Below are positions 1 to 5,644 of a stretch of DNA of 5,644 nucleotides, piece by piece. Within the stretch, counting starts at the first letter, position 1. Each line of letters opens with the position of its first letter. The notes under the pieces were generated by a model that worked only from the letters and a program-made list of their open reading frames with translations, was not told the DNA's origin and did no database searches. The position numbers and the translations under genes are program-made. The stretch covers positions 1 to 5,644 of the IMG/VR virus record IMGVR_UViG_3300045988_000393; one strand, given 5' to 3'. This stretch comes from a virus.

Positions 1-55
1 GGAAAATCGCACGGCGGCGGCGGCGGAAGAAGAAGGTGAAAAAATGGGATGCAGT
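1..55. repeat. Terminal redundancy, copy 1 (identical to 5590-5644). This is an assembly signature of a circular genome with a 5,589-nt unit.
   Basis: I compared the two ends base by base. 'ggaaaatcgcacggcggcggcggcggaagaagaaggtgaaaaaatgggatgcagt' occurs at 1-55 and again at 5590-5644. Positions 1-39 read in frame as GKSHGGGGGRRR*, which is the C-terminus of the 4834..5628 ORF. The ATG at 44 corresponds to the ATG at 5633. Confidence 0.95.
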
Positions 56-1066
56 AGGCCATTAATCCGGTTCTATTCTCCTGAAAACAAAGAAGCCAGC
101 GGCAGGGTTTACACCCTGTCGCGTTTTTGTGAGGAGAGAGCACACAAAAAACTTAAATATGAAGATTTGATGTACAGAACGGACGTAATGTTAATACCAT
201 GTGGACAGTGTATAGGATGTAGAATCGCACAACGTGAAGACTGGACAACAAGAATTGAAATGGAAGCAAGAGGATATCCGAAAAATCAAGTATGGTTTGT
301 TACACTAACATACGATGATGACCACGTACCGGGCATGATCGTAAAAACGGGTGAAATCCTCAGAAAAGTACAATACACATGGAGACCGGGCGCAGAGCGT
401 CCAGAAAGCGTGCAAATCTTACTCTATACAGATATCCAAAAATTTATAAAAAGGCTCAGAAAAGCCACAGGAGACGAGCTAAGATACTTTTGTGCGGGTG
501 AATACGGAGAAAAAACAGCAAGACCACACTACCACATGATTTTGTACGGTTGGAAACCAACAGACCTTGAACCAATCTACAAAAAAAGATGTAACGGTTA
601 CTTTACAAGTAAAACAATGGCAGACCTATGGGGGATGGGTCAAATTCAGATAGCACAAGCAGTGCCAGAAACCTATAGATATGTTGCAGGGTATGTTACA
701 AAAAAAATGTACGAAATTGACGGAAAAAAAGCAAACTCGTACTACGATTTAGGCCAGCCAAAACCATTTGCAAAAATGTCACTAAAACCGGGCATCGGAG
801 ATAAATGGTACAAAGAGCACAAAGAAGAAATCTGGAAACAGGGCTATATTCAGTGCACAAACGGAAAAAGAGCAAGAATACCACGATTTTACGAAAAACA
901 AATGGAAGCAGAAGACCCAATGAGACTGTGGCAGATTAAAAAAGAAAGACAAGCAAAAATCATAGCAACCAACCGCTACACATACCAAAACAAAGACTAT
1001 GCAGAAGATTTAAAAACAAAAGAGAGAATAACCAAAAAGAAAATGCACGCATCTGGAAAGCTTTAA
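44..1066 (+). CDS. VP4: Replication initiation protein VP4: Microviridae gpA-like HUH rolling-circle endonuclease, 340 aa.
   Basis: Cys cluster PCGQCIGCR (aa 52-60). Motif 1 FVTLTY (aa 85-90, nt 296-313). HUH motif PHYHMILYG (aa 161-169; HYH at nt 527-535). Double-tyrosine motif YVAGYVTKK (aa 213-221, nt 680-706), comparable to the phiX174 gpA YVAKYVNK active site. SD AAGGTGA (33-39) lies 4 nt upstream of the ATG and overlaps the VP2 stop codon. Confidence 0.92.
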   Translation: MGCSRPLIRFYSPENKEASGRVYTLSRFCEERAHKKLKYEDLMYRTDVMLIPCGQCIGCRIAQREDWTTRIEMEARGYPKNQVWFVTLTYDDDHVPGMIVKTGEILRKVQYTWRPGAERPESVQILLYTDIQKFIKRLRKATGDELRYFCAGEYGEKTARPHYHMILYGWKPTDLEPIYKKRCNGYFTSKTMADLWGMGQIQIAQAVPETYRYVAGYVTKKMYEIDGKKANSYYDLGQPKPFAKMSLKPGIGDKWYKEHKEEIWKQGYIQCTNGKRARIPRFYEKQMEAEDPMRLWQIKKERQAKIIATNRYTYQNKDYAEDLKTKERITKKKMHASGKL

Positions 1067-1077
1067 GCGGTGTCACC

Positions 1078-1120
1078 TAGCCAAGTACCTATCAAGTAAG
1101 GTACTTGGCTATATTATTTT
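1078..1120 (+). terminator. Perfect 13-bp-stem hairpin followed by a T-rich tract. Putative intrinsic terminator ending the genome-length transcription unit; alternatively an ssDNA structural element.
   Basis: TAGCCAAGTACCT (1078-1090) is the exact reverse complement of AGGTACTTGGCTA (1099-1111). The loop is ATCAAGTA (8 nt), followed by TATTATTTT (1112-1120). The element begins 12 nt after the VP4 stop (TAA 1064-1066). Confidence 0.5.
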
Positions 1121-1182
1121 ATCAGCACGCGCGCGCACGCGCGTGTAATTAATCAGCACGCGCGCGCACGCGCGTGTAATTA
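1121..1182. repeat. Perfect 31-bp tandem direct repeat (x2). Each copy contains a GC-rich palindrome and a 23-nt alternating purine-pyrimidine tract.
   Basis: ATCAGCACGCGCGCGCACGCGCGTGTAATTA occurs at 1121-1151 and again at 1152-1182 with no mismatch. In each copy CACGCGCG / loop CGCA / CGCGCGTG forms an 8-bp stem (1126-1145 and 1157-1176). The strictly alternating Pu-Py runs are 1125-1147 and 1156-1178. The surrounding sequence is AT-rich (TTA/TTT runs). Confidence 0.9.
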
Positions 1183-1218
1183 TTATTATTTATTTGTTGT
1201 AGCCGTAGTAGTAGAGTA

Positions 1219-1384
1219 CGTGGAAAAGTTGAAAACAGATAATTTTGAACGTTAGAACGTTAAAAAACGGTAAAAGCAAACGTTGAAAGATTTGTTGAAA
1301 AAATGTTAAAATGTTAAAACGCTCTGTTATGCTAAAGTTTAACAATGTGGAAATGTTGAAAACTCTGTGGAAAATGTTGAAAAC
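1219..1384. repeat. Iteron-like array of about 10 copies of GT(T/G)(G/A)AAA, including three copies of a 17-18-bp composite unit, plus three AACGTT palindromes.
   Basis: Core motif starts at 1220, 1228, 1282, 1294, 1305, 1313, 1347, 1355, 1367 and 1376. Composite unit GTGGAAA(A)(T)GTTGAAAAC occurs at 1220-1236, 1347-1363 and 1367-1384. Tandem GAACGTTA x2 at 1247-1262, with a third AACGTT at 1279-1284. A-tracts recur at roughly 8-12-bp spacing. Confidence 0.8.
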
Positions 1385-1405
1385 GCCTGCAGCGGGCATC
1401 TGTTT

Positions 1406-1443
1406 GCTTTGTCAAAATTTTTTACAAAAAACCTTGACAAAGC
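1406..1443. promoter_or_regulatory. 10-bp perfect inverted repeat (operator-like or hairpin) whose right arm contains the -35 box.
   Basis: GCTTTGTCAA (1406-1415) is the reverse complement of TTGACAAAGC (1434-1443). The intervening 18 nt contain T6 (1418-1423) and A6 (1426-1431), which can also pair. Confidence 0.6.
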
Positions 1444-1462
1444 GAACAGAAATTTATACAAT
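1434..1462 (+). promoter_or_regulatory. Sigma70-type promoter: -35 TTGACA, 17-nt spacer, -10 TACAAT.
   Basis: TTGACA at 1434-1439 (6/6 consensus). Spacer 1440-1456 is 17 nt. TACAAT at 1457-1462 (5/6). It sits about 90 nt upstream of the first gene of the co-oriented gene block and downstream of an A-tract-rich region. No gene lies between it and the upstream terminator-like hairpin. Confidence 0.65.
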
Positions 1463-1551
1463 ACAGAAAAGAGGTGAAAGCTATTCAAACGCTTGTTACC
1501 CAACATTCAATGGCTTATGAAAATACGCAAAGATAAAAGAGGATTAACAAA

Positions 1552-1941
1552 ATGATTAAATGCTATATCATGGATACAGACGCAAATGAAAATGTTGGCA
1601 AACACTTTAAAGTAAAAGAATTTGCGTGCAAAGATGGTTCACAGGTGGTTTTCATCGACAGTTATCTAGTATCAATTCTGGACATTCTCAGAAACCAAGT
1701 TGGAAAGCCAGTACACATAAACAGTGGATACCGGACACCGACAAGGAATAAAACGGTAGGCGGTGCAAAGTACTCATACCATATGCGGGGAATGGCCGCA
1801 GACATTCGGGTTGATGGCATGACCGCAATAGAAATCGCCAACAAACTGGAAAAAATCATCCCGTGCGGCTGCGGCATCATCGTATACAGTACATGGGTAC
1901 ACATCGACACGCGCACCAAAGCATACAGAAAGGGGGTGTAA
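1552..1941 (+). CDS. Peptidase M15A (Peptidase_M15_3 / LAS-fold zinc D-Ala-D-Ala carboxypeptidase-like) peptidoglycan hydrolase; putative endolysin, 129 aa.
   Basis: Family signature SGYRTPTRN...GG...SYHMRGMAAD, i.e. S-x-H-x-x-G-x-A-x-D with H77 and D84, plus the C-terminal WVHID (H117, D119). These are the H/D/H zinc ligands of the LAS enzymes. The N-terminal FKVKEFACKDG is typical of the family. SD AAGAGGA (1537-1543) lies 8 nt upstream of the ATG. No N-terminal signal peptide or TM segment. Confidence 0.88.
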   Translation: MIKCYIMDTDANENVGKHFKVKEFACKDGSQVVFIDSYLVSILDILRNQVGKPVHINSGYRTPTRNKTVGGAKYSYHMRGMAADIRVDGMTAIEIANKLEKIIPCGCGIIVYSTWVHIDTRTKAYRKGV

Positions 1942-1945
1942 ACAA

Positions 1946-2062
1946 ATGGCTCTTATCAGTATCAAAGACGTCAAGCAGGCAATCAAAATCATGATGCAAA
2001 TTCTGGAAAAGCTGGACGAAATCTATCACGCACTGCACGACCAGCCGAACGAAAAGGAGTAA
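1946..2062 (+). CDS. Small hypothetical protein, 38 aa (MALISIKDVKQAIKIMMQILEKLDEIYHALHDQPNEKE). Not in the supplied ORF track.
   Basis: ATG at 1946 lies 4 nt after the peptidase stop and is preceded by SD AAGGGGGTG (1929-1937). The reading frame fills the whole inter-ORF gap. Its last codons carry the SD (AAGGAG, 2054-2059) of the next gene. The sequence looks like an amphipathic helix and I recognise no homology. Confidence 0.4.
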   Translation: MALISIKDVKQAIKIMMQILEKLDEIYHALHDQPNEKE

Positions 2063-2068
2063 ACAAAG

Positions 2069-2296
2069 ATGATTGCAAAATCATGGAACGTCAGAGACCA
2101 GACCGAAAATGAATTAAGATTTCAAGAAGAAAAACTTTATACAAACATCGAAGCAAAGTACAGGCTCATAAAAAAAGTATCCAAAATCGAAGATGCAAAA
2201 AAAATCATCGATGAAATATGGAGAATGAAAAAATGGGCAAACGACATAGAATTAGAGCTAATGAGAAGGGAGTTCAACAATGGCGCATCGGAGTAG
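2069..2296 (+). CDS. Hypothetical protein, 75 aa, charged and helical (coiled-coil-like).
   Basis: ATG at 2069 with SD AAGGAG (2054-2059) 9 nt upstream. Same strand and same packing as its neighbours. No recognisable motif. Confidence 0.5.
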   Translation: MIAKSWNVRDQTENELRFQEEKLYTNIEAKYRLIKKVSKIEDAKKIIDEIWRMKKWANDIELELMRREFNNGASE

Positions 2297-2399
2297 AACC
2301 ACGAAGAGTAAGGACGGAAAGGTATTCAACCAGACCGCAAACAAAACGAAACGTATCAACGTTCAGAGTAAGCCAATGCGGGGGGGTACACGGCTGTGA
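2280..2399 (+). CDS. Small basic DNA-binding/packaging peptide, J-like / gokushovirus VP8 (ORF8)-like, 39 aa (MAHRSRTTKSKDGKVFNQTANKTKRINVQSKPMRGGTRL). Not in the supplied ORF track.
   Basis: Hand translation from ATG 2280 to TGA 2397-2399. SD AAGGGAG (2266-2272) lies 7 nt upstream. There are 10 K/R in 39 aa. The layout is an N-terminal basic patch, then 'F..TA', then a C-terminal PMRGG-x-RL. This matches my recollection of the small arginine/lysine-rich proteins of gokushoviruses. The stop overlaps the next gene's GTG start (GTGA). Confidence 0.6.
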   Translation: MAHRSRTTKSKDGKVFNQTANKTKRINVQSKPMRGGTRL

Positions 2400-2638
2400 T
2401 TCATAACTATTACACAATCAGAGACAAAGTTGCAAAAAAATTTGTACACGTCTGCGAGAGCGAAAACGACCAGACCATGGAACGAATGTGCAGAATCCTT
2501 GAGAAGGATGAAAAATCATTCATTGGACAGAGCGCAGGAGACTATGTTGCATATCTGTGTGCGAAGTTCAACGACGAAAACGGCGAATTTCAGAAAGTAG
2601 AACTTACCAAAGTATGGGAAGGTAAAACCAATGAGTAA
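2396..2638 (+). CDS. VP5-like non-structural protein (gokushovirus ORF5 family; proposed ssDNA synthesis/packaging role), 80 aa, GTG start.
   Basis: The N-terminus YYTIRDKVAKKF...ENDQTMERM and the later DYVAYLCAKFNDENGEF fit the remembered VP5 pattern (Y-x-[IV]-x-D-x-K-A..F ... ND..A.R.F ... ED[FY].L..[IV]G.[FY]D..TG). GTG at 2396 is the only start codon after the in-frame stop at 2369-2371. A G7 run (2380-2386) 9 nt upstream may act as an SD. Confidence 0.55.
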   Translation: MIHNYYTIRDKVAKKFVHVCESENDQTMERMCRILEKDEKSFIGQSAGDYVAYLCAKFNDENGEFQKVELTKVWEGKTNE

Positions 2639-3062
2639 AGTATACAGCAGATACAACCTGCCACCGAAAGAAGCAAGCACAGCAGGAGAACGAACACGAG
2701 ACACATACAAGTGGACAATGAACGAAAAAGGGGAAAAAGAACTAAAGCGCGATGCAGACATCGACCGGCAGGCTGAAATTCAATCATATGCCGAAGAATG
2801 CGACATTAAAAACATCGTGGCAAGAGCAGCATTTGACCCGAATTTTGCACAAGCACTAGCAAGTGGAGCAATGGACGGAAGCAACGTAGATATCACAGAT
2901 TACCCAGAAAACATCCACGAGCTTAAAAAGATGGCAGAAAAAGCAGGAAAAACCATCGAAGAAATCAATACAGAACTAAACAAACCGAAAAAAGAAGAAG
3001 AAGCAGAACCGAAAGAAGCAGAACCAAAAAAAGAAGAGGTGAAGCAGATTGAACCGGAATAA
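2631..3062 (+). CDS. VP3: Internal scaffolding protein VP3-like, 143 aa, with a low-complexity K/E/P-rich C-terminal tail.
   Basis: Size, position immediately upstream of and overlapping VP1, and a central segment (EIQSYAEECDIKNIVARA) resembling gokushovirus VP3. The ATG overlaps the preceding stop (ATGAGTAA). SD-like GGGAAGGT (2616-2623). Confidence 0.65.
   Translation: MSKVYSRYNLPPKEASTAGERTRDTYKWTMNEKGEKELKRDADIDRQAEIQSYAEECDIKNIVARAAFDPNFAQALASGAMDGSNVDITDYPENIHELKKMAEKAGKTIEEINTELNKPKKEEEAEPKEAEPKKEEVKQIEPE
3000..3029 (+). repeat. In-frame 15-nt tandem repeat inside the VP3 tail (EAEPK x2).
   Basis: GAAGCAGAACCGAAA (3000-3014) and GAAGCAGAACCAAAA (3015-3029) differ by one synonymous base. 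Confidence 0.85.
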
Positions 3063-4794
3063 CGAAGCACATTTTAACCAAATTCCAAAGACACACATCA
3101 GCCGTTCGAGATTCAAGCGGGACCAGAATGTGAAATTCACGTTTGACGCCGGAAAGTTAATCCCATTTTATGTGGATGAAGTGCTGCCGGGTGACACATT
3201 CAGTGTAGACACGGCAGGCCTTGTGCGTATGACCACGCCAATCTTCCCGGTAATGGACAATGCATACTTAGATGTATACTATTTCTTCGTACCTAACCGG
3301 ATTGTATGGGACCACTGGAAAGAATTCATGGGTGAAAACACAACCGGAGCATGGGAACAGAAAACAGAATACAGCGTACCGCAACAGTACCTAACAGGAT
3401 ATACCATGAAAAACGAAACAGACATAGAAGCATCACCAATTGGAACAGTACCAGAAGAAGAATCCATACTCGACTATATGGGCATCCCAACAAAGTGCAA
3501 TCGATTACCCGCAATTACACCTGAAGAAGCAAAAAAAGACATCAGTATAAACGCACTACCAATCAGGGGATATGTAAAAATCTGGAACGAATGGTTTAGG
3601 GAACAAAACTTAACAGACCCAGTAAAAGAACTAAAAGACGATAAACCAGAGGTATATGTAAAACTGGACAAAAGTCACGAATGGACAGACACACAGAAAA
3701 ACTTAACCGCAGCAACGGGCGGAGAGCCGCTGCCTGTCGCAAAATATCACGACTACTTTACAAGTGCACTGCCGGCACCACAAAAGGGGCCAAGCGTAGC
3801 TATCGGAATCAGCGGAGATGCAAGATTACAATGGTCATTTACAGTAGAAGAGCTGCAGAACTATGGAATCATGACAAGCAACGGCGCAACGCACCTTGTA
3901 CCGGCAAGTGGCAACACTTTAGGAGCGCCGACAAGGGCCGACACAAACGGACTTCCGCGCGTGTTACTGGGAAAAGATTCGGGCGGCACGAGTACATGGG
4001 TACCGATGCAAGCACGTCTTGACAATGTAGAAGCAGCAACAGTAAACCAACTGCGAGAAGCATTTGCAATACAGCACTACTACGAAGCACTTGCACGTGG
4101 CGGCAGTCGATACAGAGAAATTATTCGCAGCGTGTTTGGAACGCTTATTTCAGATAAAACGGTGCAGATTCCTGAATATCTGGGCGGCGGTCGTTATCCC
4201 ATCAATATGTCTCAGGTTGTACAGACGAGTAGCACAACGGCAGACAGTCCGCAGGGCAACACGGCTGCAATCAGTGTAACACCATTCAATGAAAACAGCT
4301 TTACAAAATCGTTCGAGGAACACGGGTTCATCATCGGTGTATGCTGCGTAAGACACGACCACACGTATCAGCAGGGTATCGAAAGAATGTGGAGCAGACA
4401 GGACGCACTAGACTACTACTATCCACAGTTCGCAAATCTGGGCGAGCAGCCTGTAAAAGTCAAAGAAATCTATACGGGAAAAGAACTCACAAAAGCAAAT
4501 ACAGAAGAAGTGTTTGGTTACCAAGAGGCATGGAGCGAATACAGAATGAAGCCTAACAGAGTAGCGGGCAAATTCCGCTCAAACGCAACAGGCACATTGG
4601 ACACGTGGCACTATGCTGACAACTACGACAAGCGGCCATATCTGTCAGACGAATGGATTAAGGAAGGAAAGCAAGAAATTCAGCGTACTCTTGCAGTACA
4701 GGACGAGCCGCAGTTTATTGCAGATTTTCTAATTCAAAACAATACAACCAGACCGATGCCGCTTTACAGCGTGCCGGGTCTCGAAAAACTGTAA
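3049..4794 (+). CDS. VP1: Major capsid protein VP1 (Microviridae F-protein family), 581 aa, TTG start.
   Basis: The N-terminus FNQIPKTHISRSRFKRDQNVKFTFDAGKLIPFYVDEVLPGDTF is the characteristic VP1/F N-terminal signature (RS.F ... T...G.L.P....EVLPGDT). Length is typical for the family. The in-frame stop at 3040-3042 leaves TTG 3049 as the only start upstream of the conserved motif. SD GAGGTG (3036-3041) lies 7 nt upstream. Confidence 0.93.
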   Translation: MNRNNEAHFNQIPKTHISRSRFKRDQNVKFTFDAGKLIPFYVDEVLPGDTFSVDTAGLVRMTTPIFPVMDNAYLDVYYFFVPNRIVWDHWKEFMGENTTGAWEQKTEYSVPQQYLTGYTMKNETDIEASPIGTVPEEESILDYMGIPTKCNRLPAITPEEAKKDISINALPIRGYVKIWNEWFREQNLTDPVKELKDDKPEVYVKLDKSHEWTDTQKNLTAATGGEPLPVAKYHDYFTSALPAPQKGPSVAIGISGDARLQWSFTVEELQNYGIMTSNGATHLVPASGNTLGAPTRADTNGLPRVLLGKDSGGTSTWVPMQARLDNVEAATVNQLREAFAIQHYYEALARGGSRYREIIRSVFGTLISDKTVQIPEYLGGGRYPINMSQVVQTSSTTADSPQGNTAAISVTPFNENSFTKSFEEHGFIIGVCCVRHDHTYQQGIERMWSRQDALDYYYPQFANLGEQPVKVKEIYTGKELTKANTEEVFGYQEAWSEYRMKPNRVAGKFRSNATGTLDTWHYADNYDKRPYLSDEWIKEGKQEIQRTLAVQDEPQFIADFLIQNNTTRPMPLYSVPGLEKL

Positions 4795-4805
4795 AGAAAG
4801 GAGAA

Positions 4806-4830
4806 GCCCGGAGAAATCCGGGCAATTTTT
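4806..4830 (+). terminator. GC-rich hairpin with a GAAA tetraloop plus T5 tract between VP1 and VP2. Putative leaky intrinsic terminator, attenuator or mRNA stabiliser.
   Basis: GCCCGGA (4806-4812) / GAAA (4813-4816) / TCCGGGC (4817-4823) forms a perfect 7-bp stem, followed by AATTTTT (4824-4830). It lies between the VP1 stop (4792-4794) and the VP2 ATG (4834). Confidence 0.55.
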
Positions 4831-4833
4831 AAA

Positions 4834-5628
4834 ATGGCATTTTCACTATTATCAGCAATACCAATGATTACAGGCGGTATCAGCGCAGTAAGCGGGCTTG
4901 TATCAAGTGGTGCACAACTGGCAAATGCATTTAAAGGCATGTCAGGCGGCGGGACAAGCTGGAATCAAAGCGGAAACGTCAGCCATGGAGAAAGCGCAAG
5001 CACAGGTGCAAGCGGCGTAGACTACAACGCAGCACAAGCAATGAACACCAATCTATGGAATCAAGCACTTGCAGGACAAAGCGCACAAGCAACACAGAAC
5101 GCAAAAAACAGCATCTATGCGATGGGCTTAAACACCTTAGGAGCAATTACACAGGGCGTATATAACAAAATCTCACAAGATGCAGCCATGAACTACAACT
5201 CAGCAGAAGCGCAAAAAGCTAGAGACTGGTCAGAAAAAATGAGCAATACGGCCTATCAAAGAGCCGTAAAAGACATGAGAGCAGCAGGAATAAACCCAAT
5301 CCTTGCATACACGCAAGGCGGAGCAAGCACGCCAAGCAGTGCACAAGGAACAGTAAGCGCACAGAGTATCAGCGCGCCAAGTGTAGGAACACAATCAAGT
5401 GGAATGCCAACACCACAGCAGCCATTACCGGGATGGAGCAAAACAAAAAGCTGGTCAAAAACAGACTCAAGCGGATACAGCACAGGAGGCAGTACGCAAA
5501 GCTATGGGTCAAAATGGATGGACATACCAAACGGAGAATTTAAAAACTGGTTAAGCGAAGATAAAACATCAGGCTTTAAAGCAGGCGGAGGAAAATCGCA
5601 CGGCGGCGGCGGCGGAAGAAGAAGGTGA
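4834..5628 (+). CDS. VP2: Minor capsid / DNA pilot protein VP2 (phiX174 H analogue), 264 aa.
   Basis: Hydrophobic Gly/Ser/Ala-rich N-terminus (MAFSLLSAIPMITGGISAVSGLV). Conserved core NYNSAEAQKARDWSEKMSNTAYQRAVKDMRAAGINPILAY, typical of gokushovirus VP2. S/T/G/Q-rich remainder. Located immediately downstream of VP1. Confidence 0.85.
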   Translation: MAFSLLSAIPMITGGISAVSGLVSSGAQLANAFKGMSGGGTSWNQSGNVSHGESASTGASGVDYNAAQAMNTNLWNQALAGQSAQATQNAKNSIYAMGLNTLGAITQGVYNKISQDAAMNYNSAEAQKARDWSEKMSNTAYQRAVKDMRAAGINPILAYTQGGASTPSSAQGTVSAQSISAPSVGTQSSGMPTPQQPLPGWSKTKSWSKTDSSGYSTGGSTQSYGSKWMDIPNGEFKNWLSEDKTSGFKAGGGKSHGGGGGRRR

Positions 5629-5644
5629 AAAAATGGGATGCAGT
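5590..5644. repeat. Terminal redundancy, copy 2 (identical to 1-55). It contains the VP2 3' end and the first 12 nt of VP4 (ATG 5633).
   Basis: Exact 55/55 identity with 1-55. Confidence 0.95.

Follow-up and report, generated by a model that had tools for sequence, protein, structure and literature searches.

Gokushoviruses are the dominant microviruses of animal guts. We analyzed a 31-bp tandem repeat in the non-coding control region of one such virus, represented by positions 1 to 5,644 of IMG/VR record IMGVR_UViG_3300045988_000393 (hereafter "the window", i.e., this whole stretch of 5,644 nucleotides (nt)). The window is a complete circular gokushovirus genome; positions 1-55 repeat exactly at 5590-5644, which indicates that this 55-nt direct repeat is the overlap of a circular assembly, and the true length is 5,589 nt. 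All recognisable genes are located on the + strand. The repeat lies between the VP4 and peptidase genes, in a spacer (1061-1383) that is conserved in DNA across dozens of GenBank gut gokushoviruses. The genes, and the features of the spacer up to the end of the repeat, are:

44-1066, + strand: Rep/VP4 gene (PF23343), an HUH rolling-circle Rep
1069-1111, + strand: GGTGTCACC motif and 13-bp hairpin (arms 1078-1090/1099-1111) with a near-invariant loop (CTATCAAGTA in relatives)
1121-1151, + strand: copy 1 of the repeat (ATCAG, a 20-nt CG/CA palindrome and TAATTA), with run 1125-1147, stem 1126-1133/1138-1145 and loop CGCA
1152-1182, + strand: copy 2 of the repeat, with run 1156-1178 and stem 1157-1164/1169-1176; terminator-like in a consensus scan by virtue of its T-rich tail
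1552-1941, + strand: Peptidase_M15_3 gene
+ strand: Phage_ORF5 and Chlamy_scaf genes, the other recognisable genes of the window
3049-4794, + strand: Phage_F capsid gene

The 31-bp repeat in the window

A first-pass annotation, made from the letters of the sequence, had described a perfect 31-bp tandem duplication at this location, and Tandem Repeats Finder returned the same element (1121-1182; period 31, 2.0 copies, 100% matches, score 124), as did a separate repeat search. Each copy reads ATCAG-CACGCGCG-CGCA-CGCGCGTG-TAATTA; the 8-bp stem with its CGCA loop and the 23-nt strictly alternating purine-pyrimidine run (GCACGCGCGCGCACGCGCGTGTA at 1125-1147 and 1156-1178), both pointed out in that annotation, can be read directly in the sequence. 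As the chance of a 23-nt run is approx. 2^-22 per start position (our own arithmetic), these runs are far beyond chance expectation. No other GC-rich alternating runs of at least 12 nt were found elsewhere in the window's genome. Folding of positions 1067-1210 yielded both 8-bp hairpins, which had been proposed as stable adjacent structures in single-stranded DNA (ssDNA), together with the upstream 13-bp hairpin; the minimum free energy (MFE) was -38.9 kcal/mol as compared to -21.8 ± 2.7 kcal/mol for dinucleotide shuffles (z = -6.3; none of the 200 shuffles folded as well). The placement of the repeat, with AT-rich flanks, between the terminator-like hairpin (1078-1111) and the best sigma70-like promoter (1434-1462) was also borne out. 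An Rfam search at permissive E-values returned sub-threshold look-alikes of miRNA hairpins only, at 1123-1179 and 1398-1451 (27-34 bits, as compared to gathering thresholds of 70-100).

No IMG/VR or JGI metagenome contig contains the duplication junction, the 31-mer or a 27-mer core, and neither a single- nor a double-copy twin was found among these contigs; the window's unit was seen in no other genome or contig searched, and the two-copy state rests on this one assembly. The uniqueness of junction and unit would be expected if the second copy were an assembly artefact and the real genome carried one unit or a non-identical pair like that of its nearest relative L121, particularly as low-complexity GC-rich DNA is error-prone in sequencing. 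However, a single read is longer than the 62-bp array, assemblers tend to collapse tandem repeats and seldom create them, perfect two-unit repeats arose independently in at least five other lineages, and two units are the norm among relatives (see below); we consider an artefact hardly credible.

The GC pair in related genomes

Relatives were collected in two ways. The first sample comprised approx. 110 genomes gathered through an invariant 21-mer to the right of the repeat (box-selected genomes); the long contigs L024, L031, L034, L036, L044, L113, L115 and L120, which gave chance matches in GTTGTAGT-type repeats, were excluded from the box scan, as was L061. The second sample comprised 80 loci picked by VP4 similarity alone, and thus free of the 21-mer bias, of which 64 had enough downstream sequence (VP4-selected genomes). 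All are metagenomic genomes, many of them from one IMG dataset, and the counts below are not phylogenetically independent. As is the case for known Microviridae, the coding strand was assumed to be the one packaged. Three genome classes differ in the placement of two-run elements (hereafter "GC pairs") and of a neighbouring cassette (1179-1383 in the window) with an AT-rich end, an array of trinucleotides ("trios") and a DnaA-box end. In class A, the pair has the hairpin on one side and the AT-rich end of the cassette on the other; in class B (L008, L012, L020, L028 and others), the cassette precedes the start of VP4, its AT-rich end pointing toward the conserved hairpin; in class C (L009, L045, L068), the cassette is inverted in place.

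Two GC-rich alternating runs were found between the hairpin and the trios, i.e., at the window's position, in 59 of the 64 VP4-selected genomes (92%). Among the box-selected class A genomes (n = 89), 62 had two runs, 11 had one, 14 had none and two had three, so that copy number does vary among aligned relatives, from 0 to 3, and the recurrence of two units in both samples agrees with the suggestion of the annotation that a two-unit state is favoured. The element was absent from 4 of the 64 VP4-selected genomes, 14 of the 89 class A genomes and 15 of 18 class B genomes; L166, with a VP4 88% identical to that of the window, has no GC run at all. As it is missing from this many relatives, the element cannot be an essential complementary-strand origin. 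Run lengths in relatives ranged from 17 to 28 nt (mode 21), with a modal start-to-start period of 23. The window's period of 31 is the sole outlier, because its duplicated segment takes in non-alternating flanks.

The nearest relatives (L121, L163 and L165; VP4 94-98% identical, and 88% identity of whole-genome DNA for L121) share the window's flanks but carry a non-identical pair, CACGCGCACGCACGCGCG-TAGA-CGCACGCGCACGCACGTG. The window's perfect repeat is thus a private, derived state, which fits the earlier proposal that the identity of the two copies reflects a recent duplication. Perfect repeats of at least 21 nt, with five different unit sequences, occur in the window, in L124, in the group L018/L096/L108/L119, in L069 and in L123. 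Moreover, L107 carries one unit while its relatives L006 and L069 carry two copies of that same unit, and L124 carries three units. The occurrence of perfect repeats in separate lineages, along with the copy changes in L107 and L124, indicates repeated slippage, with collapse and renewed duplication around a favoured state of two units. Overall, these data largely establish that 1121-1182 is a private allele of a bipartite alternating GC pair common to the control regions of most relatives, and that in the window one unit with its short flanks (ATCAG...TAATTA) was recently re-duplicated, its unusually perfect hairpin being an accident of sequence.

The position of the pair relative to the cassette varies. 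In class C and in L028 and L053, it adjoins the DnaA-box end of the cassette and not the AT-rich end, and in L079 it lies between cassette and hairpin, downstream of the cassette, with 220-240 nt separating it from the AT-rich end. The pair reads CG/CA on the gene-sense strand in each of the three classes, even beside an inverted cassette. In L001, L006, L023, L028, L045, L068, L079, L212 and L237 we also observed extra GC-rich hairpins, X (e.g., AAGGGGTTGAC...GTCAACCCCTT) and Y (e.g., GCGCCCCA-NNNN-TGGGGC...), located between the hairpin and the GC pair and always before the pair in gene-sense order. Their stems vary by genome yet remain complementary, i.e., they covary; the window lacks both.

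To assess what is conserved in the pair, we compared 86 distinct units from relatives with permutations that preserve alternation and composition. The units did not fold better than their permutations (mean hairpin z = -0.16; 51% below zero). Unit MFEs ranged from 0 to -12.4 kcal/mol (median approx. -5.7 kcal/mol), many of them between 0 and -4 kcal/mol, and the window's unit was the most stable of all and an extreme outlier. Pyrimidine-purine steps on the gene-sense strand comprised 553 CG, 270 CA, 61 TG and 71 TA (CA:TG 4.4:1), and this CA excess weakens the hairpins by approx. 1 kcal/mol as compared to random assignment of CA and TG. Among 86-95 distinct unit sequences, the positions of the CA steps are not conserved. 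A gapped pairwise test of the ratio of transitions to transversions (ts/tv) was discarded, as alternating tracts align out of phase and all mismatches then mimic transversions; an in-register test was used instead. For in-register pairs, which are not independent of each other, divergence was equal in runs and flanks (9.5% and 8.9%), whereas ts/tv was 3.76 in runs as compared to 1.30 in flanks. This transition bias shows that alternation is preserved. The conserved trait is therefore alternation plus GC richness, not a hairpin or a sequence; the Z-DNA-prone composition noted in the annotation is the property actually conserved (as also seen in the 59 of 64 genomes with intact pairs).

We also considered whether the pair could have no function of its own and be a slippage-made, microsatellite-like CG/CA tract tolerated in the spacer, with the window's duplication being neutral. 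A copy number of 0-3, repeated collapse and re-duplication, divergence no different from that of the flanks, complete absence from several lineages (including L166, in spite of its 88% VP4 identity) and the unique unit of the window would all be expected of such a tract. Conversely, an element of 45-60 nt is kept at one place in 92% of the VP4 clade in a 5.6-kb genome, the same polarity and two-unit form occur in three genome architectures, and substitutions are biased toward alternation (ts/tv 3.8 vs. 1.3). Moreover, units are either intact or wholly gone, and no decayed, non-alternating remnants were seen among the box-selected and the VP4-selected genomes. We regard a purely neutral tract as unlikely.

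The palindrome had been proposed to be a conserved hairpin for priming, PriA loading or VP4 recognition, with compensatory changes expected in its stem. Relatives instead carry stem-disrupting substitutions, the very observation that the first-pass annotation had named as refuting its proposal, and neither the mean z of the 86 units nor the stem-weakening CA bias is consistent with a palindrome maintained by compensatory change. The broader idea of a replication-control element fared better in part: the pair does belong to the non-coding control region, 15 nt from an origin-like cassette, but a mechanism based on a conserved hairpin is not supported.

The truly conserved stem-loop of the spacer is, unlike the GC units, the hairpin at 1078-1111. 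We found it in all 64 VP4-selected genomes and in 107 of 110 related genomes, in the latter without exception on the gene-sense strand. Its stem occurs in five or more different sequences, and compensatory double changes were seen at six of the eight consensus pairs. Judged from its sequence, this hairpin is a candidate nick site, terminator or ssDNA origin. The reverse complement of its loop region contains ACTTGATA, which matches 8 nt of the phiX174 origin core CAACTTG/ATA; the match is on the non-coding strand and may be a coincidence.

Microviruses need some complementary-strand initiation element (PMC9865509). The GC units could provide it as (+)-strand hairpins, free of single-stranded DNA-binding protein, that mark or assist complementary-strand initiation in the style of G4 or the PriA site of phiX174, or as parts of a multi-hairpin origin together with X and Y. 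The window's hairpins are very stable, and every unit keeps some self-pairing (median approx. -5.7 kcal/mol), as CG is self-complementary. In each of the three classes, polarity follows the gene-sense strand, even with an inverted cassette; the pair is co-linear with the covarying hairpins X and Y in many relatives; and an AT-rich tract lies just 3' of the units, where, by analogy with G4, the primase start would be. On the other hand, the 86 units show no sign of optimisation, with several folding at only 0 to -3 kcal/mol; the bias toward CA lowers stability as compared to random use of CA and TG; transitions build up uncompensated; and the units are missing from 4 of 64 close relatives, from 14 class A and from 15 of 18 class B genomes. 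The universal, covarying hairpin at 1078-1111 is a better candidate for this role. We thus consider a priming function of the GC units doubtful, though the most credible of the alternatives.

A strand-tied polarity would also be expected if the units functioned in RNA, as leaky intrinsic terminators or stabilisers of the 3' end of the VP4 transcript that shield the cassette from read-through. In line with this, the consensus scan flagged 1156-1177 with its AATTATTATT tail as terminator-like, and the pair lies upstream of the cassette in gene-sense direction in three of four arrangements. However, the T tract is not continuous (TATTATTAT), class B genomes lack a T-rich tail after the pair, terminator-like matches in the window are no more common than in shuffles (11 vs. 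7.8 ± 2.6), and the hairpins are not optimised. In L079 the pair is located downstream of the cassette, and a stronger terminator-like hairpin (1078-1111) already precedes the pair. An RNA role appears improbable.

Finally, two direct repeats with a fairly constant period of approx. 23 bp near a candidate origin resemble iterons, i.e., binding sites for VP4 or a host protein. Such sites would not be expected to vary as the units do: CA-step positions are not conserved across the 86-95 unit sequences, divergence equals that of the flanks, the units within one genome are usually non-identical, and the window's 31-bp period breaks the spacing. We consider iterons very improbable.

The neighbouring cassette and the promoter side

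The repeat adjoins a cassette of 205 nt in the window (approx. 205-215 bp in relatives), followed by a promoter region:

1179-1193, no strand assigned: AT-rich tract of 15 nt (100% A/T), a candidate DNA-unwinding element; 8-33 nt of TATTATTATATAAC-like sequence in relatives
1194-1214, + strand: trinucleotide array TTG TTG TAG CCG TAG TAG TAG, the last three units matching the DnaA-trio consensus (5'-TAG-3' = 3'-GAT-5')
1215-1218: spacer AGTA between the trios and the first box
1219-1383, - strand: cluster of DnaA-box-like 9-mers in a single orientation
1219-1227, - strand: box TTTTCCACG, 4 nt from the trios (written CGTGGAAAA on the + strand)
1227-1235, - strand: box AGTTGAAAA, at an 8-nt offset from the first box
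1293-1301, 1354-1362 and 1375-1383, - strand: box TTTTCAACA
1346-1354, - strand: box ATTTCCACA
1366-1374, - strand: box TTTTCCACA, a perfect TTWTNCACA and recognised DnaA-box variant
1399-1423/1426-1450, + strand: imperfect 25-nt inverted repeat (88% complementary, 2-nt gap), operator-like and overlapping the promoter
1434-1462, + strand: best sigma70-like promoter, TTGACA-17-TACAAT (11 of 12 matches), which would drive the peptidase and downstream genes

Three consecutive trios (TAG TAG TAG) occupy 1206-1214, with a fourth TAG at 1200-1202, and the stretch from trios to box reads 5'-TAGTAGTAG-AGTA-CGTGGAAAAGTTGAAAAC. The combination of TAGTAGTAG, 4 nt and CGTGGAAAA occurs once in the window and in 0 of 300 shuffles, and the window carries six boxes with at most one mismatch, all in the same orientation, within 165 nt. 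The number of DnaA-like boxes over the whole window is not enriched (21 vs. 14.5 ± 4); only their clustering and orientation are significant. A published relaxed rule (any NAN x 3 within 16 nt of a box) was not used, as it is non-specific in an A-rich genome (14 matches vs. 9.6 ± 5 in shuffles).

Among relatives, the cassette has a 158-fold higher density of perfect TTWTNCACA boxes than the remaining genome sequence and a 20-fold higher density of boxes with at most one mismatch, with 2-8 of the latter per cassette (88% in a single orientation). The 21-mer containing the trios recurs exactly in more than 100 genomes, its variants retaining the central A; the first box begins 3-4 nt past the trios in 101 of 110 genomes; and TAGTAGTAG was found in 60 of the 64 VP4-selected genomes, in forward orientation in 54 and inverted in six. 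More than 150 gut gokushovirus genomes share this conserved layout of AT tract, trios, 4-nt spacer and boxes in one orientation. Inversion of the cassette with respect to every gene was seen in 21 genomes, which indicates that the cassette works as duplex DNA, whichever strand is packaged. By its sequence and placement, the cassette appears to be a portable, orientation-independent module.

A coding role of the cassette was rejected: the minus-strand open reading frame at 1190-1399 (69 aa) is open for at least 60 codons in only 21% of 107 distinct cassettes (median 28 codons), and the longest open frame varies by genome. A XerCD/dif-like integration site was likewise rejected, as neither a resemblance nor integrated copies were found.

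The cassette, like the GC pair, changes by duplication: internal duplications within 200 nt past the 21-mer give extra boxes in L032 (approx. 75 nt) and L117 (larger). At 1247-1262, between the first and second box groups, lies a tandem GAACGTTA GAACGTTA (two AACGTT palindromes), of which many relatives retain a part (AACGTTA...ACGTTA). On the right, the control region ends with positions 1399-1462; a sequence similar to this stretch occurs in MG945781.

A scan of 185,579 species genomes for hosts gave 37 matches, of which 35 were chance matches in low-complexity DNA and two (L143, L147) were free microvirus contigs of 5.7-5.8 kb binned into Prevotella and Bacteroides metagenome-assembled genomes (MAGs); no prophage or oriC match was found among these species genomes. 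The window has strong Shine-Dalgarno motifs (AAGAGGTGA, GGGGGTG and AAGGAGTAA) at 1470-1551, 1925-1946 and 2055-2068. Along with the canonical sigma70-type promoter, these motifs suggest a Firmicutes- or Proteobacteria-like host; two relatives, as noted, were binned with Bacteroidales MAGs. Elsewhere in the window, a (CGG)5 run is present at 12-26 (repeated at 5601-5615) inside the 3' end of VP2, and a perfect 7-bp GC hairpin (GCCCGGAGAAATCCGGGC) at 4806-4823, between the VP1 stop and the VP2 start, was flagged as terminator-like on both strands.

Interpretation and comparison with known systems

Our preferred interpretation, to which we assign a probability of roughly one in three (0.35), is that the GC pair is a dispensable, slippage-prone GC boundary of the replication-control region, capable of a B-to-Z transition, and not a priming hairpin. 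The pair would act in the double-stranded replicative form (RF) through its physical properties rather than through a specific sequence or stem, as a very stable GC-rich block able to switch from B to Z. In class A genomes, this block abuts the short AT-rich unwinding element, where it would confine and torsionally buffer the opening of the origin, and separate that opening from the hairpin and from VP4 transcription; it would be an accessory, helpful in two copies yet dispensable. Z-DNA is expected for strict alternation over at least approx. 12-20 bp rich in CG/CA, and the runs span 23 nt in the window and 17-28 nt in relatives. A crude estimate, using approximate B-Z parameters, suggests that each unit would flip at sigma of approx. 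-0.04 and absorb approx. 4.7 turns in the 5.6-kb circle.

Several observations weigh against this interpretation. The Z-DNA or clamp function is deduced from composition alone, and the B-Z parameters are approximate. The placement of the pair at the DnaA-box end in class C, L028 and L053, and at 220-240 nt from the AT-rich end in L079, means that a pure clamp on the unwinding element is not universal, and its position also differs in class B. On the gene-sense strand, CA steps are far more frequent than TG steps (270 vs. 61; genome A:T ratio 2.1:1), and the pair keeps a fixed order with the genuine GC hairpins X and Y; both features hint at a strand-specific role, in ssDNA or RNA, that a duplex model leaves unexplained. 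As the pair is absent from approx. one third of the box-selected genomes, any function must be modest, and the counts from relatives carry the phylogenetic dependence described above.

A bolder version, which we consider quite unlikely, is that gut gokushoviruses captured a bacterial oriC-type module of DnaA boxes and trios, such that host DnaA would open the RF, with the CG/CA pair gating this step as a supercoil-responsive B-Z switch. A captured module would serve theta-type amplification of the RF, plasmid-like carriage, or exposure of ssDNA for the HUH Rep VP4 at the hairpin. If the cassette were functional, a rolling-circle ssDNA phage would depend on, or exploit, the chromosomal initiator of its host, with a bearing on host range, carrier states and the design of minimal replicons; the GC pair, for its part, would be an uncommon natural example of a conserved trait that consists of purine-pyrimidine alternation as such. 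Should none of these proposals hold, the 31-bp repeat represents a recent slippage event in a simple-sequence spacer. In the literature searched, we found no mapped gokushovirus origin, nick site or complementary-strand origin, no description of the layout of the cassette in gokushoviruses, and nothing linking Microviridae with DnaA boxes. The analysis turns an anonymous spacer into a parts list, i.e., a universal covarying hairpin, a dispensable, fast-evolving CG/CA pair and an invertible cassette with a DnaA-trio layout, and its interest lies mainly in the origin-like context that adjoins the repeat.

The closest counterpart of the cassette is the basal unwinding system (BUS) of bacterial chromosome origins, which consists of one or more DnaA boxes, a spacer of approx. 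4 nt, at least three DnaA-trios (3'-GAT-5') and an AT-rich element, as in B. subtilis incC, H. pylori and C. difficile oriC2 (Richardson 2016/2019; Pelliciari 2021, PMC8287927); its box may have up to two mismatches and lies 0-16 bp from the trios in the correct orientation. The B. subtilis scaffold oligonucleotide oHM558 reads 5'-TAGTAGAAGTAATAGTAG-GGCC-TGTGGATT-TGTGGATAAGT, and a phage example, L017, reads TAGTAGTAG-GGGC-TGTGGAAA-AGTTGAAAA. Order, strand polarity, the 4-nt spacer, TGTGGAwAA-type boxes, the 8-nt box offset and three trios next to the box are the same in both, and the phage cassette has the position and orientation of the box, at least three trios, the AT-rich element and a further box cluster. 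It differs in its setting, a 5,589-nt HUH-Rep gokushovirus genome in which it lies between the VP4 and peptidase genes and not by dnaA/dnaN, in its commonest box (TTTTCAACA, one mismatch from TTWTNCACA) and in a trio array that includes NCG and TTG units. As judged from sequence, the cassette thus has every feature of a DnaA-trio unwinding site and is built like a BUS, which is not proof that it is one. The GC pair itself is no BUS component, the "GC cluster" of the BUS being the 4-nt spacer.

A parallel for the pair may be found in iteron-plasmid origins such as that of pMOL98, where a 27-bp AT-rich region lies beside a 29-bp GC-rich region (PMC9499019). In these plasmids, as in the phage, a GC-rich segment of a few tens of bp abuts a short AT tract in an origin with DnaA boxes, and the function of the GC block is poorly defined in both. 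The oriV of RK2 is a further iteron-plasmid origin with a GC-rich block flanking its AT-rich region. The phage block, unlike these, is strictly alternating, bipartite, variable in copy number and dispensable, and sometimes lies at the DnaA-box end.

The complementary-strand origins of Microviridae include G4-type primase hairpins and the PriA (n') assembly hairpin of phiX174, the latter reportedly described by Shlomai and Kornberg in 1980 (cited in PMC9865509). Like the window's units, these are GC-rich viral-strand stem-loops in an intergenic spacer, followed by an AT-rich single-stranded stretch. The G4 and phiX174 hairpins are, however, conserved as structures, whereas the GC stems show neither conservation nor compensatory change and are missing from many relatives.

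Tracts of (CG)n/(CA)n, mostly engineered inserts, are said to form Z-DNA in supercoiled plasmids (work attributed to Peck and Wang and to Rahmouni and Wells); to our knowledge, a B-Z role has not been demonstrated for any natural phage element. The phage runs share with these tracts 20-24 bp of strict alternation, mainly of CG and CA, and a predicted transition at moderate negative supercoiling. They differ in the CA polarity bias on the coding strand, for which Z-DNA does not account. Overall, the element, as far as its sequence indicates, belongs to no defined family, and it resembles Z-forming tracts and the GC blocks that flank plasmid origins.

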